IMG/VR virus record: IMGVR_UViG_2667528172_000003 | Span: 212 to 64,211 of that record | Origin: a virus | DNA length: 64,000 nucleotides | Direction: 5' to 3' (one strand) | In this document: piece after piece, positions 39,239 to 63,464 of the stretch | Numbering within the stretch: the stretch's first letter is position 1 | How the letters are laid out: every line of letters begins with the position of its first letter | Program-made: the position numbers and the translations under genes | The notes under the pieces: generated by a model | What the model saw: the letters and a program-made list of their open reading frames with translations, nothing else | Database searches by the model: none | Told to the model about the DNA's origin: nothing

Positions 39239-39359
39239 CCGGCAATGTGTCCCGCGAAGTCCGAAGAGAACTAATTAAATCCGAACCTTTTAGGCCCATT
39301 GATAGGCCCAACGGAAAGCTCTATTGTTTTCGTTGGGCCTAAACGCATGGAGACTCCCC

Positions 39360-40601
39360 ATGGCAAGAAAAACCAAGCCTTTAACCGATACGGAAATCAA
39401 AGCCGCCAAACCTAAAGATGCCGATTACCAGCTGTATGATGGTGATGGGCTTACTCTGCTAATCAAGTCCAACGGTAGTAAGCTCTGGCAGTTCCGTTAC
39501 TATCGACCTCTGACAAAGCAGCGAACTAAGCAGAGCTTTGGAGCCTACCCTGCCGTCTCACTTTCTGATGCGCGTAAACTAAGAGCTGAATCTCGAGTTT
39601 TATTAGCAAAAGACATTGATCCTCAGGAGCATCAGAAAGAACAGGTGAGGAATTCTCAAGAAGCTAAAACCAACACCTTCTTATTAGTTGCCGAGCGTTG
39701 GTGGAATGTGAAGAAAACCAGCGTAACAGAGGACTATGCCGACGATATCTGGCGCTCTCTTGAGAGAGATGTTTTCCCGGCAATCGGTGATATCAGTGTC
39801 ACTGAGATTAAGGCTCATACTCTGGTTAAAGCAGTTCAGCCGGTTCAGGCCAGAGGTGCATTAGAGACTGTTCGCCGCCTTTGTCAGCGTATTAACGAAG
39901 TCATGATTTATGCGCAGAACACAGGCTTGATTGATGCAGTTCCCAGCGTAAACATCGGGAAAGCGTTCGAGAAACCGCAGAAGAAAAACATGCCTAGTAT
40001 CCGCCCGGATCAACTCCCACAACTAATGCAGACTATACGCATGGCGAGTATCAACCTGTCCACACGATGCCTGTTCATGTGGCAGCTTCTCACCATTACC
40101 CGCCCTGCCGAAGCCGCTGAAGCTCGATGGGATGAGATCGATTTTGATGCTAGCGAATGGAAAATTCCTGCTGCTCGAATGAAGATGAATCGGGACCATA
40201 CGGTTCCATTACCTGATGGAGCTATCGCTATTCTGGAAATGATGAAGTCTCTCAGTGGTGGCCGAGAATTTATCTTTCCCAGTCGCATCAAACCAACCCA
40301 GCCGATGAACAGCCAAACAGTGAATGCAGCACTCAAGCGTGCTGGTTTAGGGGGCGTTCTCGTTTCCCATGGTTTGCGTTCTATCGCAAGTACAGCTCTC
40401 AATGAGCAAGGGTTTCCGCCTGATGTTATTGAGGCAGCATTGGCTCATATAGACAAAAATGAGGTACGACGAGCTTATAATCGAAGCGATTATCTTGAGC
40501 AACGACGTCCAATGATGCAATGGTGGGCTGATTTTGTTAGCAAGGCCGATAGCGGGAGCATTGTTGAAAGCGGGAAAACGGGGTTAAAACTTGTGGGCTG
40601 A
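39360..40601 (+). CDS. intA: CP4-57-type integrase IntA (SlpA), 413 aa
   Basis: MARKTKPLTDTEIKAAKPKDADYQLYDGDGL; HGLRSIASTALNE; LAH...VRRAYNRS. Confidence 0.95.
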   Translation: MARKTKPLTDTEIKAAKPKDADYQLYDGDGLTLLIKSNGSKLWQFRYYRPLTKQRTKQSFGAYPAVSLSDARKLRAESRVLLAKDIDPQEHQKEQVRNSQEAKTNTFLLVAERWWNVKKTSVTEDYADDIWRSLERDVFPAIGDISVTEIKAHTLVKAVQPVQARGALETVRRLCQRINEVMIYAQNTGLIDAVPSVNIGKAFEKPQKKNMPSIRPDQLPQLMQTIRMASINLSTRCLFMWQLLTITRPAEAAEARWDEIDFDASEWKIPAARMKMNRDHTVPLPDGAIAILEMMKSLSGGREFIFPSRIKPTQPMNSQTVNAALKRAGLGGVLVSHGLRSIASTALNEQGFPPDVIEAALAHIDKNEVRRAYNRSDYLEQRRPMMQWWADFVSKADSGSIVESGKTGLKLVG

Positions 40602-41244
40602 GTTTTGAACTGGACTGGTGCTTTCCCCGCAAAGGTGCATTGGCTCAAACCAGACCTGGAGTAATCGTAGATAGATAGCAATCGAATCTGACAGTCTGGT
40701 TTGTGCCAAAAGCGGACGTTGAATGAGCAGTCTATGTTAATCAACGGGGAGCTGGTCAGGCCAAATTCAGTCTACCACAACAGATGGTGGAGTTGGCGTG
40801 TCTGAACGGAGTACTACTAAGCCCACCACGCATGACCGGGGATGGGTATTATGAAGCGATGATTGCATATCCGGATCAGAATCGGGTTGGGTTGATGGAG
40901 GATCTCTTGAAAACCTCATGCCGATCCCAGTATCGGGTAGTTTAAGTCCCCCTAGATTGATCAGAATATTTAAAATTTAGTCAAATAAATTAACAAGGCC
41001 CAACAAGCATAAGGTAGCTACTGAGTCACAGCAGGACATAACGTCAAATTTACATGGGCTCGATTTTCTGAGGTTTTACCAGCGCGTTACTAATCTGGCG
41101 GAGCCGGAGAGAAGAATTAGTCAAAGGCATTCTCCTGGTTGCCGCAGAAGCCCACGTGATGCAACACTTTTAAGTATATGTTATTGATTGTCTTATAGTT
41201 CAAATGATATATTCTATTTAATTTAACATTTGAGAATTGTTGAC

Positions 41245-43369: not shown

Positions 43370-44035
43370 TTAGGGATCATTGAGGTAGCTCACTGTTGTA
43401 TCTGTCAGCTGGTGCTCTGTGACGTCCCGTACTTCGTTCCGTGTTTTGAACAGATTAAAAACCAGGATGTCTATCCGATACAGTACCCGGATGATACATT
43501 GAGCCGGGATATACAGATCGATTCCTATCACCTGCATCTCATGATGAAAACCATCTACCAGATTGAAGATCCGGAAGCGTCTGTCGTAGACAAACGCATC
43601 CTGCATAAAGTCGTTAGTTCAGAACTGATTCAGCAATTCCGGTTTTATCAACAGAGTCGGATTACGCACCGGCAGACCTCGCTTTACTTTACGATGAAAA
43701 TTTGGTTTCAGCAGGCAATAAATCCGGTGTACAAGCTTAAGATTCAAGCAGCAGCCCTATCTTCGTAGTCCCTGAAATAGCTTCTTAAAACTGTATGGCT
43801 GATAGTATTCTATTATTTCAGTCAACGCTCAGATCACCGGTTCATGTCGGCGTATTTCGGCTTGGAGAAAATATACCGTCTGCTCAGCGATAATGACCTC
43901 CATGCTTGGCGTAAGTACATGGCAAATTGCACTGTCAGATAGTTGACGCTCTAGAATTTTATCAATGATTTTAAGGTTTTTTTCTACTAAATCTTTTAAC
44001 TCGCAATTTTCCAGACCTAGGTCGGCAAATATCTA
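43370..44035 (-). pseudogene. Decayed IS3-family (IS407-group) transposase remnant
   Basis: IFADLGLENCELKDLVEKN (OrfA end) and PELLNQF*TNDFMQDAFVYDRRFRIFNLVD (OrfB DDE start) with stops. Confidence 0.7.
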
Positions 44036-44223
44036 TTTAAGCCACCTGACCTGCTCGCCGTTGATTAACATACAGCATTGGTAGCAATGCGACTATTTGG
44101 CTACGAGATCAACTGTGAACTTCCGCTATTCGCTCGTAGCAGACCTTCAGCTTAGTTACCTAGTCCGCTCAGTGCCAGAAGCGGACGCTTTCTCTCAGCC
44201 TGAATCTGATCAAATGCCAGAGG

Positions 44224-46281
44224 TTATATTTTGTGCGCTGCAAAGCGGCTTTCTGGTAATCCGGCAAAAAAAGGTGACCGAATGCTGAAAAGCGCACCGT
44301 CATAAGCGGTTGGCTCTGCGAGTCCTACCCGGGCACTGGTACATGAAAGTGTGTGGAGTGACGAACCACCAAGCACCGGGCAGGTTGTCTGGAGGGCTGG
44401 AGCAGAAAGAATGCTGTGTATTTCTCCCACCGGACTGTATCGGACAACCCAACTGCCGCCCCATTCTGCGTTCCACAGATAGCCCTGCTCATCAATGCAG
44501 GAACCATCAGGCGCGCCGCCGTCTTCGATTTTGGTGAACACGCGCTGGTTTTGCAGCGAGGGGTAATCGCAGCACATAATCCGACCCTGCATCGAGTCAC
44601 AGTAATAGAACGTGCCACCATCGGGGCTGAAACAGATGCTGTTCGGTATAGCGACATCGGGCGATGCAAACGTCTCAACAGTCAGCGTTGCCGCATTGAG
44701 TCGATGAAACTTACCGATGACTTTAACGGGATAATCGTCATCCATCGTCCCGAAGACAAAATTACCGGCACGGTCGCACCGTCCATCACCCATACGGGTG
44801 CCGGTGTCTCCCAGTGAAGCAGCCACTGGGGTAATTAATCCGCTGTTGAGATCATAGAAAGCCAGCCTTGTCGTGAATCCCATCAGCAGAATGTGATCCT
44901 GTTCAGTTAGGGCAAAGGAGCCAAGACGTTCAGGCAGCGACCAGCGCATCACAGCATCAATACCTTCTTCTATGGCGAGAAGTTCACTGGCTTCAATACA
45001 AAAAACGATAGTTTTATCCATCGGGTTGGTGCGTTTTAAGTAGTCGGTGATGGTTTGCGCTACCAGCATGGTGCGCTCATCAATGACCATGGTGCGGTCA
45101 AAGTCTTTCTGATTATAAATACGGTCTTCAATCAGCTCACCGTGCTTATCCACCTGCCCTTTGGTCGGACGCCAGCCTTGTAAATCCACGTCAATGTCCA
45201 CGCGCACCACTTTGTAGGGTGCCAGGAAACCATCTTCGATGCCTTCTTTCAGGGAATAGGTATAGACCGGTTCTCCGAAGTAGTCAGTACTGGAAACTTC
45301 TTCGGTTTCTTTCGGCGTGGCGGTGAGGCCAATCTGCGTGGCACTGCTGAAGTATTCGAGGATTTCACGCCAGGCGCTATCCTCCGACGCGCTGCCACGG
45401 TGGCATTCGTCGATAACAATCAGGTCAAAGAAATCAGGCGCAACTTGTTTAAACGCTTTCTGATGTTCTTCCGGCCCGGTGATGGCCTGATACAACGCTA
45501 GTTGGATTTCGTATGCCGGGTCGATATTGCGCCCGGTAATTTTTGTCATCGCGCTGCCAAAGGGTTGGAAGTCGTTGGTTTTTGTTTGATCAACCAGGAT
45601 ATTGCGGTCAGCGAGGAACAGAATGCGTTTCTTGTTTTTGGCTTTCCATAAACGCCAGATAATCTGGAAAGCAGTGTAGGTTTTCCCTGTTCCGGTAGCC
45701 ATGACCAGCAATACACGTTTTTGCCCGGCAGATACGGCTTCTATCGTTTTATTGATTGCCTGTAACTGATAGTAGCGAGGGGACTTTCCTGAGTTATCAT
45801 CATAGTAATCCTGGCTGATGACTGGCATTTGTTCGGTAGTAAAACCTTTCCAGGAACAGTATTTATCCCAAAGTTGTTCAGGACCAGGGAAATCTTCTAG
45901 CTTAATCTCAGATTCAAGCTGCACAGGATTAGTTTTATCATGGAAGATAAAGCCATCACCGTTGGAGGCAAAAACAAACGGCACATCAAGCAAACGCGCG
46001 TAATCCAGCCCTTGCTGCATCCCTTTGCCAATCTCATGCTTATTGGCTTTTGCTTCAATAACAGCAAGCGGTAACCCTGGTTTGTGGTAAAGCACAATAT
46101 CGGCTGACTTCACTGTCAGGCGTGCCGCCAGTTTGCCGAGTACAACCACTTTGCCATCGCGGAGTTTTACCTCCTGGCGTATCTGCGTCATTACATCCCA
46201 ACCCGCCTCTTTGATTGCAGGCAGAATGAATTTTGTGATGATGTCCGTTTCTGTCAGATGTATTTTGCTAACGCCAGCCAT
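44224..46281 (-). CDS. hsdR: In-frame chimera: EcoAI-type HsdR N-terminal 428 aa fused to N-truncated SMP-30/gluconolactonase
   Basis: [22 protein letters not shown] then KTIVFC|IEASELL junction (~44997); [25 protein letters not shown]; no hsdM/hsdS nearby. Confidence 0.8.
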
Positions 46282-46471: not shown

Positions 46472-47551
46472 TCATGAGCCCATCTTTATCATTTTTTCTT
46501 TAAGCTTTTCGCCAATTTCCGTTGCAGTTGGCTCTGCATCAGGATCTTGAGTAAAAATTTCAGCCAGCACGGTGATGTAAGCCTCCCCCAGACCAACGGT
46601 GATTGCGCTGGCAGTGGCTGCTGATATTGCCCCACCAGCAACCGTTCCGACTCCCGGGAAAAACTTCAGAATATTAACAACAACGGTACGGCCTAAAAAC
46701 GTCGCGCCCCCGACGCCGATCGCCGATGCCACCAGCGTGGTAAGGGTTCCCTTTGATAGCTCAAGGCCAAATACGGATGTAATACCCGCAATCATACCAA
46801 CCTGAATAGGTGCAAGGATGACAGCGTCAGAAAAAGGGATCGGACTCGCGCCCGCTGCGGCTGCGGCCGTCGCGGAAGCCGCTACAATTTTATGCGACTG
46901 TGTCTTCCTATAGTTAATATTGGCCCTTTGCGCTGCAGCCAACGCTCTACGCTTTCCCTCAGGGATAACCTCTGATGTCAGTTCTATCAGGCTTTCTAAT
47001 CCCATTGGTTTTAGGACGTAACCATCATCCATCTCTTCCTGAATCGCACGGACTCGAATTACATTTTTGGATTCAGGAAGCAAGCGCTGAACTTCGTTTT
47101 TGAAACCATTGTCACTTCTCGCCTTGGTGACCACACAAATCACCGGCATATGGCGAGCCAGCATAGTGTGTAAATCAATCTCTGCCTGCTCGACCCTACG
47201 CCCGTCTTCTTGTATGCAAAGCCATGCGACATGAATATGGCGATTTGAATCTCTGTCAGACGAGCGTTCTGTTATCAGTTTTTCAAGATCAGCATGAGTC
47301 TCCTTGAACTGAGACATTTCCAGACCACGGGTATCAAAAATAGTGAGTGGTACACCCTCTTTCGTAATCTCACGCGTATTTTGAGTCACTGGTTTACCCT
47401 GGCCCGTTTCGGCCATTTTCTGCTGGAATACCGCGTTGATTAATGTGCTCTTCCCTACCCCAGAACGGCCAGCAATCAGTATCGAAATATTGCCCCGCTC
47501 CGTGGTGGCCTTTTGAATAGCGTCCTTTATGATATCGTCAATATTATCCAT
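46472..47551 (-). CDS. P-loop GTPase with DUF697/YcjF-like hydrophobic C-terminal domain (359 aa)
   Basis: GRSGVGKS, GKPVT, DTRG, VVTK; SPIPFSDA..QVGMI..I..VFG; AGGA RBS at 47551. Confidence 0.8.
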   Translation of the reverse strand: MDNIDDIIKDAIQKATTERGNISILIAGRSGVGKSTLINAVFQQKMAETGQGKPVTQNTREITKEGVPLTIFDTRGLEMSQFKETHADLEKLITERSSDRDSNRHIHVAWLCIQEDGRRVEQAEIDLHTMLARHMPVICVVTKARSDNGFKNEVQRLLPESKNVIRVRAIQEEMDDGYVLKPMGLESLIELTSEVIPEGKRRALAAAQRANINYRKTQSHKIVAASATAAAAAGASPIPFSDAVILAPIQVGMIAGITSVFGLELSKGTLTTLVASAIGVGGATFLGRTVVVNILKFFPGVGTVAGGAISAATASAITVGLGEAYITVLAEIFTQDPDAEPTATEIGEKLKEKMIKMGS

Positions 47552-48270
47552 TACGTTTCCTGTTATGAAATCGAGTTCAGGCACCAGAGCAATCCGGGGA
47601 ATGAGTGACATTTCTGGCATTAATTTGCATTAAGTTACTGATGGAGCCTGACAGACCATTCCGCAACAAGGCGGTCTGTCCGACATGAATTTTCAGAGAA
47701 ATCAGTATTGCGTTATTCGCAATTATTTACAACGCGTTACAGGTTACTTCCGTTGATTGCCAAAAGAAAGGTTGGCTGCACCCGCACTCAACAATAAACA
47801 AAAGTACGGTTGCAGAAGCAGTCATTGCTTACATTCAGAAAGCAGCCTGTTAGTACTTTCCCCTGCGGCGATAAGCCTTGCTTTTAAAATGCGCCTCGAG
47901 GCCTCTGCTACTAAGGGAAGCGCTCTCATATAGCCGTTTTAATTGACCATTGTGTCAGGGTGATACCGTACACGTCCTGGAGAAGTCGAGGTAACTTCTT
48001 CAGAATCCCCATCAGCAAGAGAGCTGCTTGATCGCTCTCGCGTTTTAACCAACGTCATGCTTGATAAACCCGACGATGCCGCTCCAAATTACGTTTTGCT
48101 TCTTATCCTATCCGAACAGTTGAAGATGCTTAACGACGCCTTTGAGGCAGAGGAAGTGCAGAGAATGACAGGCGACCCGAACTAATCCGGTTTCAGAGCC
48201 CCGCATACTGTGGACTGGCAAGATATGCCATCACCAATACAACGGGGCCCGATGTGGTGCCCGGAAGAGC

Positions 48271-51200
48271 TTACATCACCCCCTTTCCGGGCATAAGTGA
48301 AGAGAGTGTTGCAGATGCGATTTCTCTAATCTCAATTTCAGTGTCATTTGAAAGATCGCGGGCAAGCAATTCGATTTGCTCGAGTGTCATGAACCGCGTG
48401 TTAAGAAGTGCTGTAGCAGCATATCGAATACTGGATGACTCATCTTTGAGGAAAGGTATAAGCGTCATAACAGCTTCTGGGTGCAAGGTAACTTCAGTAA
48501 TAATCTGTCGTAACAGCGTGGGTTTGCAAACGCCATCCCTGATCCATTTGGAAATGTTTCTCTGTAATTCGGCAGATCCATCGAGCATATTCTTGAGTGC
48601 CTTCTCACCATTCCCACGAATTTTTGTTCGTTTTTCCTGCACCATCTCAAGAATAAGTGCCAGATTAGCGTCGCCCTTATCCTTGACCAAAATACCAGAC
48701 AAGGCATCACGAGGGCTGTCCGGGATAACACCACCATTCTCTGGATAGGGTTTCTCCCGCAGCTTCCAGTCTTCATATATGAGACGAATATCCTGAGATA
48801 ATTCATCAGACTGGGGAAGCCTGGCTGCAAATGAGGCCGCCGGAAGTGCTACATCCAGCATTTCACTCCGTAACCCCAGTTTTGCAATACTTTCATGTCG
48901 TGAATTGAAAGGTTCGGTAAGGGCCTCAAACAAGTGTGAAGCACCCTGCTCAGGCATAGAGGTTTCCAGTCGTTGCAGGAGTAATTGCTGCCAATCCTGG
49001 TCCGGCATATCCGTAATAAACCGGGTACCTATAAACAAAGCTGTTCCCTCTCCTTGCATAAGGATGCGTTTAATTCCGTCTATGACTTTTGGATGTGTTT
49101 TGTGCTGATAAAGAACAGTGGCGGCTAAAACACTGTAGAACTGACTGGCGTGCAGAATTGTTGAAATTAAATCATCGAAATCGTCTGGATCGATATCGAC
49201 CCTTTCTGGAGACATGTCTGCATCGACAGCAGGAAGCCTGCCAAAGGCTGAAACCAGTACAAGCGTTTTTCCCTCGCACTGCCTTTTTAAACTGGCAGCC
49301 TGCTGTCTTAGTTTATCTGGTTCAAGGCCTGAAGCTTTAGCTATCTGGTACAAAAACTTGCTTCTATCAATATCTTTATCCGTTGTTTCAAGATGTAGCA
49401 GGTCTTCCAGGCTGAGGTGATGAAAGCGACTTATATTCAAAAACGCGCCGAGCTCAAGCATGTGTTCAGGTAAAATCTCATCCAAAACCTGATGGTTATC
49501 GTTTCCAGCCAGCACAGAGAGGAGACCGATGCAATTCACATCAATTTCAGCGTAAACGCTATAAAAATCTTTCTCTCTTCCCGGATAGCGAGTGACTTCA
49601 TCCGGTAACTCAATACCTGCTTTTGCATAGCATTCCATTAACCCAACAAAACAGCTGGCGGACACCCCTCGTCCTTTATCTACGATGGCGTCAAGTGTAC
49701 TAAGCCCGACCTCCTCAGGGTTTTGGAGGATAATTTTTGCAGCGCCAAGAATGATACAATCCTGCACTTTCCTCCCGCCTATGAAATCAAACAGAGAATG
49801 TTTTTCCCTTAGCTGCTTTGGCCACTTTGACTTAATACTATTCAATGCAATTATTGCATCCTGGTAGCTAACCTCTGAGGGGCTACCAGAGAGAATACAT
49901 GCCCAGGAAACCAGCCAAAGCCAGCCATCATGAGAATGAAGGTTCGCTCTCACCTTTTCCCTTACAACATCCCAGCTATACGTTGACACCTGGCAAAGGG
50001 CGTCTCCTGCCGAATACATGCTTGAGGATGACGATAAGGCATTCCAGCAGCAGTCGGCAAAGATGCATAATGAGTCATCCGTAACAGGCCTTCCTGCTTC
50101 AATAATCAAGTCCAGAACCTTTACCAGCTCTTTCGTTGATGTCGTTTTTCCCTGGAGCATTAATTCGCGCCAAGCATCCAGAATGTCTTCTATCAGCCCA
50201 AGGTGGCTTGCAAAAGAGAGCAGTTCGCTACTGGCATCTCTTTGAATCACGTTAATGAGCAAGTTTCGTTTTAGGTTTTGCGGTTGCTGTTCGATAAAGA
50301 CAGCGGCGCTATACTCTGCAAAGGTTTTATGAATGAAGGTTACTGCTTCTTGATTAAGCGTGTGTATGCGCTCGATGACGCCTACGCTTTCCCAGAAATC
50401 AAAACATGCCTTAACCTTATTACTGCAAGCAAGATAGCTGCCTGGCATTTCTTTTTGCCATTCAGATACACAGTGTCGGAATGTTTCTTCAAAGGGTTCA
50501 GTACCGTGCTCAAACAGTATCCAGCCTAACAAAGAGATGAACCACTTTCGCTCTGGTTCACTTGGTCCAGTCACTTCAGAACGTACAGAGGGGTATGCCG
50601 TTTCCAGCAATCTGAATAACTGTCGATAAAGAGAAATTCGAGAGCTTTCTGGCTCAATACCTCTGGAAGATAAGGATGCGAGCATGGTTAAAATCAATGG
50701 ACTTCTCGATGCAACACCCTTGAGATGCAAGGATTTCAGTTGCTTTTTTGCGACATCGAAAGTGTGCCTTCGAACCTCCGGGCTTTCGAAAGGTAAGGCT
50801 TCCATCACTTGTATTAGTGCGTCGTCAGCCTGAGACTCCTCCAGAGGAAGAAGCTCATAATGTTTCCAGTTTCCCAGCTGACCTGGTCGGTAGCCTACAG
50901 GCCGACTGGTGAGTAATACCCTCGCGTCAGGATGGGCAACTGCAAATTTGTGAATGGCATCAGTAACGAGGTTTTGGCTGACCCCACATTCATCGAGGCC
51001 ATCACATAAAATGACTGCATCCTGCAGGTCAGGTGATTTGTATTTCAATCCAGAGCTGCTAAGCGCTACATCGATAAGGGCCTCTTCAAAACGGATGCCT
51101 TTATGATTGATAAGCGAGACAACCTGACGCAGTCGTGCCAGCAATACCAAATGGCCTTCAGCTGCATATGTTAATGCTATGCGGCGAAGCAGTAATGATT

Positions 51201-52248
51201 TTCCAATCCCTGGCCCACCAATGATAATGCCCCTGGTAACATATCTGCCAAGGGTATGAGCATCAAACTTGTTGATGTCACTCCTGCGCTTTGCTGAATA
51301 TTGGTGATAGCTGTTAAGCGCTTTGGATAAGTCATCAGGAAACTGCTCTAGATCTTTAATGACAGAGGCTTTGAGTGGGATCCAACATTTCTGTAGTGAA
51401 ACCGGTTTTGCCTGCCCCGGGATTGTAAACTGAGAATAACTTTTCTCAAGCCAATCACAAACGGCTGCTCTTAGTTGAATACCGCTTTCTGTGGTATCCA
51501 TTTTGATGCCGATACCAACGTTTCTGAAGTCATGAAGCAACGAGGTTACTGTTGCGCGACCTCTTATTCTGATGAGTTTTCGCGCGCGTTCAACCAGAAC
51601 TGACCACGCTCGACGTGGTTCATTGAATAAACGCCCCAGCAGGCTAATGGCATTGACCTCAGCACTATCATTTCCGTCTACAGCATCTACCGTGACAATT
51701 CGAAGGGAACGACACACCCGGGATAACTCCGGGAATTCAAGGCCAACGTTCTTGATGAAATCATCACCTATTTCGTGGAGGCCATCAATTCTCCCGGTCC
51801 CAATACGAACAATATTATCAGCCAGATTCGAGCGGATGGTCGTACTGCTGTTGGGGCAAACAACCAAAATTCCACAAGCAATGCTCTTGTCGTTAATGCC
51901 TGTTGCCAGCGCGCAAAGTGCATCCCATAAATCACTGCCACGCTTCAGGCCTCGCTTGACCTGAACCTCCACCGATTTTCCCGTGTTCGTTTTTAATGAA
52001 ATATCATCACCGGGCCCCCCCGTCTCAGCATCAATCAAAACCGGTACACCATTGAAAACATCCTCAATCCAGCTGACTTTCTGTTCCAGAAGGAGAGACG
52101 TCATAGCAATAGCTGCAACACGAGCCTGGTAATCTAATCCCCTTTCAGCCGCGCTTCCTCCGACTGATGACTTTTTACTGTTTTGTTCATCATTTTTTTC
52201 AGGTTGAACGGAATTGGGCAACTGGGGTTGAGCCACCGTCTTTTTCAT
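48271..52248 (-). CDS. Nuclease-NACHT (STAND) protein 1, ~1325 aa
   Basis: RGLDYQ..E.GGPGDD...EVQVK nuclease; GGPGIGKS; LCDGLDE; TSRP; SPL; FIHKTFAEY; HEAT-like C-terminus. Confidence 0.85.
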   Translation of the reverse strand: MKKTVAQPQLPNSVQPEKNDEQNSKKSSVGGSAAERGLDYQARVAAIAMTSLLLEQKVSWIEDVFNGVPVLIDAETGGPGDDISLKTNTGKSVEVQVKRGLKRGSDLWDALCALATGINDKSIACGILVVCPNSSTTIRSNLADNIVRIGTGRIDGLHEIGDDFIKNVGLEFPELSRVCRSLRIVTVDAVDGNDSAEVNAISLLGRLFNEPRRAWSVLVERARKLIRIRGRATVTSLLHDFRNVGIGIKMDTTESGIQLRAAVCDWLEKSYSQFTIPGQAKPVSLQKCWIPLKASVIKDLEQFPDDLSKALNSYHQYSAKRRSDINKFDAHTLGRYVTRGIIIGGPGIGKSLLLRRIALTYAAEGHLVLLARLRQVVSLINHKGIRFEEALIDVALSSSGLKYKSPDLQDAVILCDGLDECGVSQNLVTDAIHKFAVAHPDARVLLTSRPVGYRPGQLGNWKHYELLPLEESQADDALIQVMEALPFESPEVRRHTFDVAKKQLKSLHLKGVASRSPLILTMLASLSSRGIEPESSRISLYRQLFRLLETAYPSVRSEVTGPSEPERKWFISLLGWILFEHGTEPFEETFRHCVSEWQKEMPGSYLACSNKVKACFDFWESVGVIERIHTLNQEAVTFIHKTFAEYSAAVFIEQQPQNLKRNLLINVIQRDASSELLSFASHLGLIEDILDAWRELMLQGKTTSTKELVKVLDLIIEAGRPVTDDSLCIFADCCWNALSSSSSMYSAGDALCQVSTYSWDVVREKVRANLHSHDGWLWLVSWACILSGSPSEVSYQDAIIALNSIKSKWPKQLREKHSLFDFIGGRKVQDCIILGAAKIILQNPEEVGLSTLDAIVDKGRGVSASCFVGLMECYAKAGIELPDEVTRYPGREKDFYSVYAEIDVNCIGLLSVLAGNDNHQVLDEILPEHMLELGAFLNISRFHHLSLEDLLHLETTDKDIDRSKFLYQIAKASGLEPDKLRQQAASLKRQCEGKTLVLVSAFGRLPAVDADMSPERVDIDPDDFDDLISTILHASQFYSVLAATVLYQHKTHPKVIDGIKRILMQGEGTALFIGTRFITDMPDQDWQQLLLQRLETSMPEQGASHLFEALTEPFNSRHESIAKLGLRSEMLDVALPAASFAARLPQSDELSQDIRLIYEDWKLREKPYPENGGVIPDSPRDALSGILVKDKGDANLALILEMVQEKRTKIRGNGEKALKNMLDGSAELQRNISKWIRDGVCKPTLLRQIITEVTLHPEAVMTLIPFLKDESSSIRYAATALLNTRFMTLEQIELLARDLSNDTEIEIREIASATLSSLMPGKGVM

Positions 52249-52846
52249 TACAGTTCCTTTAAATCGGTTACGGTATAAATGAAGATGCAATTACAGTACA
52301 AGATATCACCACGATAAATTACCTGTGCAGCAATGCAACAGGCACATTAAAAAACGGTTGTGTCCTATGTACGCCCTTACCTTTGCTGTCTATTCCCGTC
52401 TCGAGCAAATAAACCAAGAACTGGTTTATATGGATGGGGAGAGGGTCGCAAAGGGTCGATACCTGTCTGAATAAAGTTGATTACGCCTTTCCAGGGGCTA
52501 TTCTGTGCTCACACTACAGACCCGTACGAGGGTAATCATGGGCTGATATTTGGCATTTACCAAATAAATTAGAGGGATAAAGGTGAAAGCTTTCATCGTT
52601 ACCAACATTAAGACGACCAGCACAGCACCTCATGAAAGTTCAGTCTAACCTCCCTCAGATAGCAAACCTAACCATTAACCATGCCGGGTTCTTTCGGTTT
52701 CAATGGCGAAACGCCTTCTCATATGAATAAGCAGTAGTCACACTCAATTCAGACCACTCTCTGGCCTGGCGTATTGTGGCCGCACCCTGCCTTCTGGTCA
52801 CGCTTGCTCCTCGTGGACCACAGTTTTGTCCCTGCTCATACTGTTA

Positions 52847-55800
52847 TTAAATTGCCGTCGCGATGAGCTTTTTCCCTGATTGAGTAATGCGTAACCCCAG
52901 ACGTCCAGTGAGTGGCTCAAGAACAGACAATATAAGTATTCTGAGCATTCCCGATGAGACGCTTTCGTACAGGCGCAACAAAATTTCGACGTCAGACGCT
53001 TTCCCACCTTTAGCAATTACCCCAACAATGCTGGATGCAAAGTTGTATGTCGTTGCAAGGGCTAGCTCTTCAAGTTTGTCGACAGAAGGTCCTTGGCCAT
53101 TGGCATGAAGAGCTTCAAGAGCACGGCCAGCTAAATAGTCGTGAGCTACATTTTCTTCAATTGAAGGCCCTATCGCCAGATAAAAGGCGTCCTGAAGTTT
53201 ACTGATCGTATTGGGAACACCCAGTTCCACAGCGTTAAGTAGAAGCCGCAAGGAGTCATAAGGCTCATAATCATCCTGAGCGATCCACTCTTCTATCAAG
53301 CTGTAGGGAACGGTTCGTCCGGGATGCAGTGGAATAGACTCCAGAATACCTGAATCAAGTCCGCACATTTTCTTGCGATATCTCAGACCAGTTGCAAGAG
53401 AACCGATAATTGATACGCGCTCTTTCGCATTCCACTTGCGACTTGCTAAAGCAGATACTGCTTGTTCAACAATTGCGCGTTCAGGTATATGGCCCAACAA
53501 GTCAATCGTTCTCATTACCATGTCGCTGTTCATAACAGGAAGCTGATCGAGCAAGACATCAAAGACATCGAGGAGGCCGGCATTTACCGCATAAAGAGAA
53601 GCAATGAGCCGAATGTCTTTATCGAGCCCATCTAAGGTTATTAACTCTTCAAATTTTGAAGTCGCCCCCTCCCTTTGCCAGTCGCCAAATAAGCCACTCA
53701 TAATATCCATGGCATTTTTTCGTGGTACCTGAGGCGACTGAATAAGCCGTACGAGAGTTTTGGTATCGACATATGTAGACGATAAAACTTTGCCAGCCGA
53801 GGCGTTTGAAGAGTAATCGTCAACGGCCATCGCCTGGACAACGAGCATCTCAATCTCGTGGGTTAGTTTCTGTTGTGTTAGATACCAGGTCGCCAATCGG
53901 ATTTCTGGTGGCAGGGAGGTGTCATTTGAAATCTTGATGGCAATATCGGCATCCACACAACCCGGCCTCATGTGCCCAATCAGTATGCTGATAGTCTCCC
54001 TGTCTTTTGTTCTTTCAGCGTGTTGCCTGAAGTGAGAAATATAGCGATTTAATACCGCATTACCGAGTCTGTTCACTTCAAGTTGTAAATCGCCAAGATT
54101 TGACAAAAACTCTGTATCGCCTGCAAGAAGGGTATCAATAACATTTAAAGAAATATCATTATCGCGAAGCCGCGCAACAATCACATCTGCGCCACAATGG
54201 AGTAGATACCTTTCACCTAGCCTCTGACGAACAGCCGGATGCAAGGGTTGGGAAAATGCATCAACAATAATACTGCTAATCATTTTTTCCGAATGAAATG
54301 GTCCTGTTCCCCAAAGGCTTGCAAATCTCTCGCCCATGATATTTCGCTGAGTCGGTGAAACGGACATACCATTCGCAAGACAACGTCCGAGTAGCCTCAG
54401 GCCAGTGTGGAAAACATCGTCCTCACGCTCAAGAATTTGATCAATTATAGCGCCAGGATTTGAGTGGCGTTCGAGTGCGAATTGTATGGCCTGGGCCCAT
54501 GGCCGCTTTGCGATCATTCCTAACCGGGTGGGAATTTGCTCGCTGTGTTTCTCAAGCAGCTCAGTCGAGGCCAGGTACTCCTGGACAATTGGGAAAGGAA
54601 ACGCACATCCTGCTGAGTTTACTTTGCGCAATATACCGCGACGAATCATGGCTTCATAAACATCATCTGTGTTTAAAGAGAGACCAAAACTTTTGATACA
54701 TTGCGCTAACTGATTGATTTTAATGCCAACGGTATTTTTCTCTAGTGCCTCGAACGCAGCACACTCAGCAATTTGCCGAAGCAAAGACGCATCAACGCTG
54801 TCATTCTGCGTTAATTTAAATGCCACAGGCCGAAACAGTGTCTCGAGGTAGATATCAAGTAGATCACTTCGTTTCAGACTCTCGTTTTCCTGACGCATAA
54901 CAAGCATGAGAGCAAGAAATATCGGGATACGTACAAGGCGAGCCAGTTCTGGATGAACATCCATTTTATTCAGGAGTGTTTGTGCAACAAGAGGCTCCCC
55001 GGGTCGGTAGAAGTCGACATACAAACGAACATCTTCATCTTGAAGTGGTGAAAGTTCTACCACTGTCGCATCTTCTGTTGGAACAATGGCTGCGGCATCC
55101 CTGACCGTCACCAACCAACGCAAACCTGGATAAGTGGCGCGAAAAACCTTAAGTCTCTCAAGTATGAGAGTTCTTCGGTCACTGGATACTTCATCAAGTC
55201 CGTCAAGCAAAAGTATGAAGCTTCCGGAATCAGCGGAAGTGCGCCAGTCAATTTTCACATCAAAATCGCGGTTATGACGTTCAGTTAAATATGCCGGGAT
55301 AGTCAAATCAGATTCAGATAGCTTTGTTACAGGAATAATCGCAGGCAGAAGGCCTTCAAGAGCTGTCTTGCGAGCAATTGCATTAACAAGTGTCGTTTTC
55401 CCAAAACCAGGGCCTGCAATGACCACCACTGCATTCAGCTCAGCGTTTGGGAAGTTGCGTAAATCAATCGGAGTATCAATGTTGAAATTCCGCCATCCCG
55501 GAATATCATCATCAAAATCAGGACGGCGCTCCCGGTCATAGCGGTTGCATTTTGGCCAGAGATATTCAGCGTCCGTTGACTGAACGAAATCAGTTCCAGG
55601 CACAGAAATAGTTGAAAGAGTGATGATCGCATCACGGTATTGCGCACTTCCCCAATGTTGAGGATCGCGAATAATAATTCCCGCTTCTGCACGAAGACGA
55701 TCGTAAAGCGCAGTACCATCAAAGCTCAAACGTTTAGCCGCGCCTTCCAGAGCCATCTCGGTTAGAACACTGAATAACGCAGAAACAGCAACTGATGTTG

Positions 55801-56344
55801 AAGGCATCCAATGGGGTACATAGTCCCGTACCAACATTTCAGATGGAAAGACACTGATGTCCAGATGATTAATTATCTGCCATACATTCTGAATATCGTC
55901 GTTGAGCAGCAGCTGAATTGATGACACTAATTTGAGTTGCTCAGCTGTCAGGCGTCTTTGCCATTCAATAATATCTGAGCTTTCGTGACGCCTCGTGATT
56001 TCTATCAACTGAGAGGCAAGCGCTGATGGCTCGCCCAGTACCAACTCAAGGCGATCTTCCAGTTTAAAATCCGTATTCAGCTGACGAAGGAATGAAGGCC
56101 AAAGTCCTTGCCATGCCGAACCTTTAGCCTCGAGTGTAAGTTTGACCTGATAGAACCTACGGGCCCCATCAGCAAAGCGAACAACAAAATCATCGACTGA
56201 TTGTGGTGCCTCAATTCTGACTTCTACAGGTTGATCCCGGCGCGGACGTTCACGCGGATCGAGCATTCTGCCGAGGTACAATGCTGCGACTTGATCTTGA
56301 TATCTGATGCCAGCCTGAGTTGCCGGACCTCCTCTTTCAGCCAA
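52847..56344 (-). CDS. Nuclease-NACHT (STAND) protein 2, ~1165 aa
   Basis: AGIRYQ..IEAP..VDD...FYQVK nuclease; AGPGFGKT; LLDGLDE; IPIFL; FPFPIVQEY; probable TTG start with GAGGA RBS. Confidence 0.85.
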   Translation of the reverse strand: MAERGGPATQAGIRYQDQVAALYLGRMLDPRERPRRDQPVEVRIEAPQSVDDFVVRFADGARRFYQVKLTLEAKGSAWQGLWPSFLRQLNTDFKLEDRLELVLGEPSALASQLIEITRRHESSDIIEWQRRLTAEQLKLVSSIQLLLNDDIQNVWQIINHLDISVFPSEMLVRDYVPHWMPSTSVAVSALFSVLTEMALEGAAKRLSFDGTALYDRLRAEAGIIIRDPQHWGSAQYRDAIITLSTISVPGTDFVQSTDAEYLWPKCNRYDRERRPDFDDDIPGWRNFNIDTPIDLRNFPNAELNAVVVIAGPGFGKTTLVNAIARKTALEGLLPAIIPVTKLSESDLTIPAYLTERHNRDFDVKIDWRTSADSGSFILLLDGLDEVSSDRRTLILERLKVFRATYPGLRWLVTVRDAAAIVPTEDATVVELSPLQDEDVRLYVDFYRPGEPLVAQTLLNKMDVHPELARLVRIPIFLALMLVMRQENESLKRSDLLDIYLETLFRPVAFKLTQNDSVDASLLRQIAECAAFEALEKNTVGIKINQLAQCIKSFGLSLNTDDVYEAMIRRGILRKVNSAGCAFPFPIVQEYLASTELLEKHSEQIPTRLGMIAKRPWAQAIQFALERHSNPGAIIDQILEREDDVFHTGLRLLGRCLANGMSVSPTQRNIMGERFASLWGTGPFHSEKMISSIIVDAFSQPLHPAVRQRLGERYLLHCGADVIVARLRDNDISLNVIDTLLAGDTEFLSNLGDLQLEVNRLGNAVLNRYISHFRQHAERTKDRETISILIGHMRPGCVDADIAIKISNDTSLPPEIRLATWYLTQQKLTHEIEMLVVQAMAVDDYSSNASAGKVLSSTYVDTKTLVRLIQSPQVPRKNAMDIMSGLFGDWQREGATSKFEELITLDGLDKDIRLIASLYAVNAGLLDVFDVLLDQLPVMNSDMVMRTIDLLGHIPERAIVEQAVSALASRKWNAKERVSIIGSLATGLRYRKKMCGLDSGILESIPLHPGRTVPYSLIEEWIAQDDYEPYDSLRLLLNAVELGVPNTISKLQDAFYLAIGPSIEENVAHDYLAGRALEALHANGQGPSVDKLEELALATTYNFASSIVGVIAKGGKASDVEILLRLYESVSSGMLRILILSVLEPLTGRLGLRITQSGKKLIATAI

Positions 56345-57210: not shown

Positions 57211-57513
57211 GACAACCCTGTATCCCGCTCATCGTCCGTAGGGTCGACGTTCTGGTCAGTCTGCCAGCGGGTGTTCTGCCAGGTGAAAAAGGTGATCCGA
57301 GAACAATGGTGATTAAACCTGTGGCGATTCAGTCCCGGTGAGAGAGGCGAATGCGTTTAGCGCCGAATGAAAACGCATCACTTTTTTTAGGACATAAGTG
57401 AGGCATGCCTTAGATGTTTATGCGTGAGAATGGAGGTCCGCTATGTGCCAAGAGCGGACATTTATAAATATTAAGACAGGATTGAATGCCAGGGCATGTC
57501 TGAGCTAATACTA

Positions 57514-57535
57514 TCTAGATTATCCGTGGCGATTC
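57514..57535 (+). repeat. Orphan copy of the IS right end
   Basis: TCTAGATTATCCGTGGCGATTC identical to 60775-60796. Confidence 0.85.
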
Positions 57536-59210: not shown

Positions 59211-59568
59211 AGCCCCCCTAGGAATCTAAAATTAGTTATGTCAAATGTCCCTTACTCAGATAGTTCCCGCCTGCAATTGAAGCATAGTCGATTACCTTTC
59301 TAAGCATCGCTAATAGTGCTCAATAAGGCATCGTACCTTTGGATGATTTTACCTGTGACCTGCTCCCGTTGATTAAGACACCACAGTGTTAGTGATATAG
59401 TTGTTGGAGTTGCGTATTTCCGCTCCTCGCTCATAGCAGACCTCGCAACACTGCAGGCGGTCCGCTGTATGCCAGGAGCGGAACCAGGTGTGCCAGAGAC
59501 TCTCTAAAAGTTGATGGTTCTTTTTGTATGGATACTTACACGTTTATCACGTGCAGATTCCATCACTT

Positions 59569-60797
59569 TGAATCGCCACGGGTTTAACAGACACCTCAGA
59601 GTCATTTAAGATGACTTAAAGAGAGGTGCCCATGAGCGGTAAACGTTATCCCGAAGAGTTTAAAATTGAAGCAGTCAAGCAGGTTATTGATCGCGGTCAT
59701 TCTGTTTCCAGCGTTGCAACACGTCTCGATATCACCACCCACAGCCTTTACGCCTGGATAAAGAAGTACGGTCCGGACTCATCCACTAATAAAGAACAGT
59801 CAGATGCTCAGGCCGAGATCCGCCGACTCCAGAAGGAACTGAAGCGGGTTACTGACGAACGGGACATATTAAAAAAAGCCGCGGCGTACTTCGCAAAGCT
59901 GTCCGACTGAGGTACGCCTTTATTCGTGACAACTCCCGTTGCTGGCCTGTTCGTCTGCTCTGCAGGGTGCTGGATGTTCATCCCAGTGGCTTTTACGCCT
60001 GGTTTAAGCAACCGTATTCTCAGCACCACCAGGTAGATCTGAGACTGACGGGACAGATCAAACAGTTTTGGCTGGAGTCCGGTTGCGTTTATGGTTATCG
60101 CAAGATCCATCTGGACTTACGGGATAGCGGGCAACAGTGCGGAGTGAACAGAGTCTGGCGACTGATGAATCGTGCCGGGATAAAGGCTCAGGTCGGGTAC
60201 CGGAGCCCTCGGGCACGCAAAGGCGAGGCCAGTATCGTGTCACCCGACAGGCTCCAACGACAGTTCAATCCGGATGCTCCGGATGAGCGTTGGGTAACGG
60301 ACATAACCTACATCAGGACTCACGAAGGCTGGCTGTATCTGGCCGTGATTGTTGATCTGTTCTCACGCAAAATTATCGGCTAGTCAATGCAATCCCGGAT
60401 GACAAAGGACATTGTCCTGAACGCACTGCTGATGGCTGTATGGCGGCGTAATCCTCAAAGACCGGTGCTGGTTCACTCGGACCAGGGCAGTCAGTACACA
60501 AGCCATGAGTGGCAGTCGTTCCTGAAATCACACGGCCTGGAAGGGAGTATGAGCCGTCGCGGTAACTGTCACGATAACGCGGTTGCAGAAAGCTTTTTCC
60601 AGTTACTGAAACGCGAGCGGATAAAGAAAAAGATCTACGGAACGCGGGAAGAAGCCCGCAGCGATATTTTTGATTACATCGAAATGTTTTATAACAGTAA
60701 GCGTCGGCATGATTAGAGCAATCAGATGTCACCGACAGAATATGAAAACCAGTATTATCAACGGCTCGGAAGTGTCTAGATTATCCGTGGCGATTCA
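59569..60797 (+). mobile_element. IS3-family insertion sequence (1229 bp), OrfB inactivated
   Basis: TGAATCGCCACGG...CCGTGGCGATTCA ends; OrfA 59632-59910; A7G frameshift motif 59871-59878; premature TAG at 60381 and 60714; no target duplication. Confidence 0.92.
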
Positions 60798-62820: not shown

Positions 62821-63464
62821 TCAGTGTCGGTAAAACGCATGCAAAACCATGCACCTTATGAATGCATGTTTTTTATACGTAAAAATGGAGGGATTTTCGG
62901 GGATTTTTAAGCGGACTACTGCACGGCGGCGGGTGTAATTCAGTTTCTGTGCAGGCGTGAATTTTTCACGATTATCATCGCGCGAAGCCGCGTCAGGCCT
63001 GAATCCGATGGCCGTTAAAATGTCATTATCTTGCACCGAATAATTAATTTTTTCACCGGCGGCCAGCCAGACCTGTAGCGCCTCACGCAGATTGTCGATT
63101 GAGTGCTGCATGACGCAGCGCTGAATTGCGGAATGCTGCCCGGAATAATTCATCAGCTCAGGGGCAAGGGCGGCGGCCAGCTCCGCGCCGTGCGCCTGCA
63201 TAAGTCATTTAATCGGTCTCGGATGCTGATGCGCTGCACCTCCTCATGCGAGCGGATGTAGCGACCGGCAGCCTGATTAATTTCCCACTTTTTCACTGCG
63301 ATAATCTCGCGCAGCGTTTGCAGGCTCCGGCCGCTGTGCCCGCTGCCTGCAAGCTGTTCGCGGTATGCCTGTTCGGCCTGCGTCAGTTCATCCCTGCGTT
63401 GCAGCCAGGCAGATTTGTTTGCCTGACAGGCCTCAAAGACTTTCTGTAACGTCAGTGTGGTCAC
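62821..63464 (-). pseudogene. psu: Psu (polarity suppression/capsid decoration), frameshifted
   Basis: NKSAWLQR, INQAAGRYIRSHE.VQ.ISIRDRLND|MQ, GEKINYS.QD.DILT.IGFRPD match P4 Psu; 1-nt loss at ~63202. Confidence 0.9.

Follow-up and report, generated by a model that had tools for sequence, protein, structure and literature searches.

Two adjacent nuclease-NACHT genes in the int-psu interval of a P4-type satellite are probably separate NLR-like anti-phage receptors

The cargo of a P4-type satellite in a 64,000-nucleotide stretch of viral DNA (positions 212 to 64,211 of the 64.6-kb IMG/VR record IMGVR_UViG_2667528172_000003; hereafter the window) contains two large neighboring genes, which we call gene A and gene B and which both encode an N-terminal nuclease, a central NACHT module and a long helical C-terminus. 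An earlier note, written from the letters of the window alone, had described two co-oriented large open reading frames (ORFs) about 600 bp apart, and this is what we found: both genes lie on the minus strand, with gene A upstream of gene B, and a spacer of 598 bp separates them. The genes and their domains, in amino acids (aa), are laid out as follows.

52847..56344, minus strand: gene A, Cap4-nuclease/NACHT/HEAT-like protein of 1165 aa (ORF and start, family length, AlphaFold2 model)
55670..56344, minus strand: gene A nuclease domain, aa 1-225, Cap4/LmuA-type PD-(D/E)xK with E45, D51, D52, Q66 and K68 (structure and motif)
54167..55669, minus strand: gene A NACHT module, aa 226-726 (NLRC4 match, Foldseek, invariant columns)
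52850..54166, minus strand: gene A putative sensor, helical HEAT-like repeats, aa 727-1165 (alphaRep/HEAT matches, all-helical model)
52249..52846, strandless: spacer between A and B, 598 bp
48271..52248, minus strand: gene B, Cap4-nuclease/NACHT/HEAT protein of 1325 aa (ORF and start, family length, AlphaFold2 model of aa 126-1325)
51469..52248, minus strand: gene B nuclease domain, about aa 1-260, Cap4-type with E75, D81, D82, Q96 and K98, boundary approximate (hhalign, motif, PADLOC)
49909..51468, minus strand: gene B NACHT module, about aa 261-780, boundary approximate (Pfam, PDB profile, Foldseek)
48274..49908, minus strand: gene B putative sensor, helical repeats with HEAT at the end, about aa 781-1325 (HEAT_2, alphaRep, model)

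The start codon of gene A is TTG, and its ribosome-binding site, GAGGA, lies 7 nt further upstream; gene B starts at an ATG preceded by AAAGGA. The length of gene A is that of its whole family (proteins of about 1165 aa, found across Proteobacteria) and the same holds for gene B and its family of 1325-aa proteins; when compared with hundreds of homologues, both ORFs are full length and keep all their catalytic residues. Within the spacer, a small-ORF scan found no convincing ORF and no Rfam family was matched, and promoter and terminator consensus scans of the spacer and its flanks gave background levels only. Cluster representatives served for the alignments and models: P0123 for A, the sequence that was modeled, which differs from the gene in the window at 4 aa, and P0003 for B, which differs at 6 aa.

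The N-terminal domains can be named more precisely than the PD-(D/E)xK-type nuclease of the earlier note, whose G..YQ...E...DD...QxK motif is real and nearly invariant in both families. In the AlphaFold2 model of A (pLDDT 87.5, pTM 0.74), residues 4-224 superimpose on the Lamassu nuclease LmuA (9hr5_C; Z 13.6, root-mean-square deviation (rmsd) 3.8, 194 residues aligned) and residues 1-229 on Cap4 of Enterobacter cloacae (7yib; Z 12.7, rmsd 3.8, 208 aligned; both with VIA-align). The N-terminus of A also matches the PADLOC model of LmuA (E 3e-7) and HamA (8zue, E 2.3e-4), with the same E...DD...QxK motif aligned, whereas it scores 14.5 bits (E 0.041) against the Pfam family Cap4_nuclease (PF14130), below the gathering cut-off of 26.2. 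The N-terminus of gene B matches the PADLOC models PDC-M54A (E 2.2e-10) and LmuA (E 3.5e-4) and does not match PF14130; its nuclease fold is predicted through homology to the A family. Because the Pfam cut-off is not reached, the Cap4-type assignment rests on structure and motif.

The central NACHT module proposed earlier is likewise confirmed in both proteins. In gene A, Pfam NACHT (PF05729) scores 26.0 bits, just below the cut-off of 26.7, and the module has a Walker A motif GPGFGKT (G311-K316), a Walker B motif LLLDGLDE (D381-G-L-D384-E385), a sensor-1 arginine (R415) and a winged helix. Residues 226-726 of the model superimpose on activated NLRC4 (6b5b_B; Z 24.9, rmsd 4.8, 437 aligned), and the top Foldseek matches of the model are SeAvs3 (E 1.1e-9), NLRC4 and NOD2. 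Gene B exceeds the same Pfam cut-off with 32.3 bits and has a Walker A motif GGPGIGKS (G345-K350), a Walker B motif ILCDGLDE (D416-G-L-D419-E420) and R449; NLRC4 is matched both by PDB profile (E 4.4e-5) and by Foldseek of the B model (E 4.6e-9), and NLRP3 is matched as well. Within the family alignments (94 homologues of A and 73 of B) Walker A is invariant, the Walker B sequence DGLDE is invariant in both families, and the nuclease motif E...DD...QxK is at least 90% conserved in each. A Walker B signature of the form D[GAS]hDE defines the NACHT clade of STAND NTPases (10.1101/2022.07.19.500537), and A and B have the attributes of that clade: Walker A, a DGLDE Walker B, and an NLR-like fold of nucleotide-binding, helical and winged-helix domains (NBD-HD-WHD).

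The long helical C-terminus is borne out by the models, which are all-helical in this region for both A and B (the B model, covering aa 126-1325, has a pLDDT of 83.4). The earlier note had seen HEAT-like repeats only at the end of the gene that comes first by coordinate, which is gene B. There they are weakly supported by Pfam HEAT_2 (E 0.003, nt 48304-48483) and by a match to alphaRep (E 1.9e-5, about profile positions 1172-1306); gene A has such repeats too, which had been missed, as its residues 804-996 resemble designed HEAT-like alphaRep proteins (E 1e-6). When the A protein of the window is compared with another Enterobacter allele (locus L070), 55 of the 77 aa differences lie at or beyond aa 701 and only 3 of the 77 in aa 1-300, a sensor-weighted pattern that fits a receptor under diversifying pressure in an arms race.

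Compared directly by BLASTP, A and B share only a detectable N-terminal motif (E 0.004). Profile-profile alignment (hhalign) extends over 907 columns, with a probability of 99.7%, an E value of 3.5e-27 and 17% identity, and joins residues 11-951 of A to residues 18-1009 of B; the final 200-300 residues are unalignable. On these profiles, A and B are distant homologues that represent two old sister families. We considered the tandem as the product of a local or recent duplication and ruled this out by the 17% identity and by the wide, separate distribution of each family. The earlier impression that the sensor regions look unrelated thus holds for the last 200-300 residues and fails for the part that the alignment covers. 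As these last sensor residues cannot be aligned, A and B probably recognize different triggers, which would widen the protection afforded by the satellite.

We then asked whether A and B are found together. Using a profile scan of species-representative genomes with 10-kb flanks, we found that none of 52 A-family loci has a B-family gene within 10 kb. A metagenome scan gave about 40 genuine B-family loci (26-60% identity), all without an A gene; the sole A signals at these loci are P-loop cross-matches inside B. Nor is an A gene present at the E. coli loci that encode a 75%-identical homologue of B. Homologues of A with 66-67% identity are solitary, with one in a CP4-57-like island beside large STAND-type genes (STAND/YobI ATPases) and one inside a conjugative element. 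No B homologue was found in a 401-genome sample (class of a Pseudomonas), and when the 10-kb region was compared by megablast with 5,426 complete E. coli genomes, an unrelated 450-bp match annotated as HNH was the only result. When the window is aligned with relatives of 76-78% identity, nucleotide homology stops at the borders of each gene, and A and B therefore behave as independent cassettes. The downstream tail of a 76%-identical A homologue (L069, on a contig of SRR18111924), where the contig ends, matches neither the spacer nor any region upstream of B.

The 75% homologue of B in E. coli lies directly downstream of a type III CBASS-like operon (L060-L065, 5084-13981) that encodes SMODS, bacterial HORMA, AAA, Cap17-like and exonuclease proteins.

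The tandem itself is confined to close Enterobacteriaceae relatives (islands of Enterobacter), plus one relic described below. Within the tandem-bearing group, members of the A cluster are named Enterobacter hormaechei, E. bugandensis and E. cloacae; in total, the B cluster has 345 member sequences and the A cluster 59. These names, together with a smpB region that is only 80% identical to that of the Klebsiella-type locus, suggest that the host of the window is probably an Enterobacter. Next to gene B lies a third gene that travels with it in closely related islands only:

46472..47620, minus strand: DUF697 GTPase (Pfam)

A tblastn search with this GTPase matched near-identical islands and none of the distant A or B loci. 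We had considered it as a conserved third component and rejected this at the family level, given its absence from all distant A and B loci. In Enterobacter islands (L070-L079, L158-L165), the downstream neighbor of the A-B-GTPase block is a giant sacsin-like ORF (PF25794 SACS) of about 2500 aa, and ahead of the block lie Mrr_cat and an unknown protein of 1283 aa that adjoins a reverse-transcriptase-like gene.

Several natural variants separate the two genes. Klebsiella-type islands, laid out as smpB, transfer-messenger RNA (tmRNA), integrase, DUF3892, HsdR remnant, GTPase and B, contain an intact B without A that directly abuts a truncated chromosomal gene, and a single B variant has been recorded on 713 contigs. 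B is also often fragmented in Klebsiella assemblies (cluster members of 283-713 aa). The homology of the window to these A-less islands ends at 52448, 200 bp upstream of B (L053, position 9801), and the junction between A-containing and A-less islands falls at a short microhomology, ATCGACCCT. Together, the microhomology and the abutting truncated chromosomal ORF suggest that the A-less junction arose via deletion by illegitimate recombination. A second variant is the relic: at three loci (L169-L171, 7782-7931), 150 nt of A, corresponding to residues 1071-1120 (54% aa and 74% nt identity), remain some 70 bp ahead of a B gene that is intact and 74% identical. This locus is inserted after cusCFBA, and its host is named Enterobacter kobei in cluster-member annotations. 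Since a relic of A persists there, the tandem predates about 25% sequence divergence, with A lost later in this lineage. The converse case is E. hormaechei CP031574 (L166, 7132-13069), in which an IS21 element (IstA/IstB) sits in the 5' part of B and breaks it into pieces of 84, 210 and 1022 aa, and in which the upstream A is intact.

In the window, a tmRNA gene (956-1319) is followed in turn by a prophage, a P4-family integrase, about 22 kb of cargo and a split psu, and the two boundaries of the cargo are as follows.

39324..40601, plus strand: P4-family tyrosine integrase, left boundary of the cargo hotspot (Arm-DNA-bind_3, Phage_int_M and Phage_integrase)
62821..63464, minus strand: psu (polarity suppression) in two overlapping ORFs, right boundary of the hotspot (phrog_6366 positions 1-90 and 90-185)

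As the integrase and psu bracket the cargo, the region is a P4 int-psu hotspot, in agreement with the earlier note. Of the satellite, the window covers the part from int to psu, and other P4 genes would fall beyond its end. The split psu is probably frameshifted.

We compared A and B with known systems using the defense models of PADLOC-DB 2.0.0 (2023, without Avs7-24) and NCBIfam. The earlier note had raised the possibility that either gene is a named Avs or bNACHT type; in these two libraries we found no named subtype that fits A or B. Specifically, PADLOC matches are restricted to the first ~90 residues (LmuA, HamA and PDC-M54A), and a sub-threshold match to GajB covers about 20 residues at the P-loop of gene A (E 0.021). 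The NCBIfam model of Avs10/Erebus EruA (NF058535) gives 17.7 bits for A and 11.9 bits for B against a cut-off of 1000, so that neither is a member. A full-text search with six available accessions retrieved no citing paper, the supplements of Kibby et al. list none of the available accessions and no tested bNACHT of these lengths, and ESM Atlas feature searches with both sensors gave generic HEAT-repeat leads only, with scores below 0.9.

The closest likenesses are to STAND proteins that carry nucleases. SeAvs3 (PDB 8dgc) and SeAvs7 share with A and B a Cap4-type nuclease, a STAND NTPase and a large helical-repeat sensor, and, like A and B, these Cap4-nuclease Avs proteins are single-gene systems found in defense islands. 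Unlike them, A and B have an NTPase of the NACHT clade (DGLDE, with NLRC4 and NLRP3 as best matches), and their HEAT-like sensors do not specifically match any solved Avs sensor. SeAvs3 and SeAvs7 form Cap4 tetramers, and defense by bNACHT25 and bNACHT32 is nuclease-dependent (PMC13581612; PMC12169576). The latter two proteins (Kibby clade 6, from E. coli) resemble A and B in that a PD-(D/E)xK DNase is fused to NACHT, and their defense depends on nuclease residue D48, at a position comparable to D51/D52 of A. By its description, bNACHT25 is set apart by its 752 aa, its short NCH1 C-terminus and its need for DnaJ (PMC12169576), whereas A and B are longer and end in HEAT-like solenoids. A REase-NACHT protein of Kibby clade 2 (WP_044834066.1; REase 17-132, NACHT 289-737) has nearly identical domain spacing, the nuclease taking up roughly residues 1-130 and a helical linker leading to a NACHT that begins near 290, which we treat as a lead in which spacing was compared. 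No characterized clade 2 protein is known to have such a sensor. Avs10/EruA/bNACHT64 is also an antiviral STAND of the NACHT clade and of similar length (model of 1318 positions); it senses the major capsid protein, and its representative in Enterobacter hormaechei is EhAvs10 (PMC13581612). Finally, plant paired NLRs of the RGA4/RGA5 type and NAIP-NLRC4 offer a parallel for two adjacent NLR-like genes with homologous nucleotide-binding modules. In contrast to those pairs, A and B show no family-wide pairing, both members are complete and either is found intact alone, and the genes point the same way across a 598-bp gap instead of lying head-to-head.

The architecture, the intact motifs, the folds, the distribution of the families and the natural separability of A and B are direct observations. 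We propose that A and B each encode, in a single gene, an NLR-like (Avs/bNACHT-type) anti-phage receptor that is separate from the other, and that the two genes came to lie side by side in the int-psu hotspot by chance, a reading to which we assign a probability of roughly 0.72. Of the two alternatives offered by the earlier note, two independent receptors or a sensor/helper pair, the first is favored because the families are nearly always solitary elsewhere, each gene occurs intact without the other and both sets of motifs are complete; an obligate pair is disfavored on the same grounds. The pairing of A and B is best explained by accretion in the hotspot. A defensive role is supported by the context: the int-psu interval also holds an HNH nuclease and an HsdR remnant, a B homologue follows a CBASS operon and A homologues stand beside STANDs.

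By analogy with the Cap4-nuclease STANDs SeAvs3/SeAvs7 and with bNACHT25/32 (PMC13581612; PMC12169576), we infer the anti-phage function of A and B, their oligomerization, the degradation of DNA and the nature of the trigger. In an uninfected cell, A and B would each be an autoinhibited monomer. Upon infection, the C-terminal HEAT-like solenoid might bind a conserved phage protein or sense a phage-induced change in a host factor, after which the nucleotide-bound NACHT module would open and drive homo-oligomerization. This would gather the N-terminal Cap4-type PD-(D/E)xK domains into an active nuclease, and indiscriminate DNA degradation would abort the infection. The earlier suggestion that TerL or portal of the adjacent prophage could be the ligand is speculation.

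A number of points weigh against two separate, directly sensing receptors. No defense model in PADLOC or NCBIfam matches A or B beyond the N-terminal nuclease or the P-loop. Moreover, the tandem is kept in all 19 examined loci in which A is at least 93% identical, always as an 80-aa ORF, A, B and the DUF697 GTPase and with differing flanks. The adjacency is older than about 25% divergence, as the E. kobei relic shows, so some functional linkage may exist. The loss or disruption of one partner is no proof that the surviving gene still works. Indirect sensing, as by bNACHT25 with DnaJ, would be an equally possible mode of action by analogy. [quoted passage not shown] The helical-repeat sensors of A and B, at 440-550 aa, are however closer to those of direct-binding Avs than to the short NCH1 of bNACHT25 (752 aa), and the concentration of the allelic differences of A in its sensor is consistent with direct co-evolution with phage ligands; neither observation is decisive, and we regard purely indirect sensing as unlikely, though as a live variant of our main reading.

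A further rival holds that A and B cooperate, whether by dividing the roles of sensor and helper or by forming a hetero-oligomer, in the manner of plant paired NLRs or NAIP-NLRC4; one would detect the phage, and the other would be required for the response to be carried out or amplified. Such cooperation is suggested by their being co-oriented neighbors with homologous NACHT modules, by the integrity of the A-B-GTPase block between differing flanks in the 19 Enterobacter loci, and by the relic upstream of the 74% B homologue, which makes the tandem older than the present island. Against this, conserved co-location of the families was not found (the partner is missing from all 52 A loci and from each of the roughly 40 distant B loci), both families being solitary in some 90 loci outside close relatives, and intact B without A occurs on hundreds of contigs. 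Neither partner lacks an effector or has a degenerate NTPase, so that neither resembles a degenerate sensor or an effector-less helper. The genes are neither head-to-head nor operonic, with a 598-bp spacer of which B keeps just 200 bp as its own upstream DNA when A is absent, and the ~17% identity of the NACHT modules would make mixed oligomers unlikely. The earlier note had counted a lack of co-location elsewhere against its proposal; the genes are indeed not co-located at the level of the families, whereas among close Enterobacteriaceae the A-B-GTPase block recurs. We consider a cooperating pair very improbable, as none of the hallmarks of known pairs is present, keeping it in view because the block is stable in Enterobacter. 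Slightly harder still to credit is that A and B, possibly with the DUF697 GTPase, evolved into a cooperating pair or small network in the tandem-bearing lineage of Enterobacteriaceae. If this were true, one receptor might serve as guard, amplifier or backup for its neighbor and fire, for instance, once a phage has inhibited the latter; prokaryotes would then have their own equivalent of plant sensor/helper NLRs. It is similarly far-fetched that one or both genes have no part in defense and are island cargo in decay or STAND regulators that serve a non-immune purpose. The Pfam NACHT score of A just below its cut-off, the fragmentation of B in Klebsiella assemblies and the partly degraded neighboring cargo (split psu, truncated HsdR, insertion sequences) could be read in this way. 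Both ORFs are nevertheless full length with every catalytic residue conserved, and a nuclease effector joined to a STAND NTPase in defense islands is a classic antiviral STAND signature (PMC13581612; 10.1101/2022.07.19.500537).

As a pair, A and B do not seem to constitute a novel type of system. Nuclease-STAND receptors are a well-mapped class of bacterial immunity, to which A and B add two apparently uncharacterized NACHT-clade members with HEAT-like sensors, carried by a P4-type satellite of Enterobacter and Klebsiella lineages that are common in the clinic. Discovery of their triggers would lengthen the list of phage proteins recognized by bacteria and could help explain failures of phage therapy in these hosts, and the natural A-only and B-only variants are ready-made controls.

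The other cargo of the satellite consists of an HNH nuclease, the N-terminal half of HsdR fused to an SGL domain, the GTPase, an insertion sequence (IS) and unknown proteins. Three of its features were delimited.

44224-46281, minus strand: 685-aa ORF, HsdR-SGL chimera (PADLOC REase_I, E 1e-267, model positions 1-430 of 807)
43831-43972, plus strand: match to the Hfq-binding small RNA isrN (RF01396; full-length, 85.8 bits against a gathering threshold of 44)
59569-60797: IS, about 1.2 kb long, bounded by terminal inverted repeats of 38 nt (TGAATCGCCACGG...), transposase ORFs split

In the 685-aa ORF, the start of a type I HsdR is joined to an SMP-30/gluconolactonase (SGL) domain, which looks like a deletion chimera; its counterpart in Klebsiella-type loci is called as two genes (186 and 492 aa). 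The isrN match adjoins a low-GC HNH module within the satellite cargo. This 3.3-kb module is flanked by a 28-nt inverted repeat (40733-40760 and 44045-44072, 93% complementary), and in the Klebsiella-type island a DUF3892 module takes its place between the same flanks. The core of the repeat, CCGTTGATTAACATA, recurs at 59366-59392, and this copy at 59.3 kb is weakly matched by the tail that follows L069, the 76% homologue of A. The IS end also occurs as two orphan copies, at 57313-57331 and 57514-57535.

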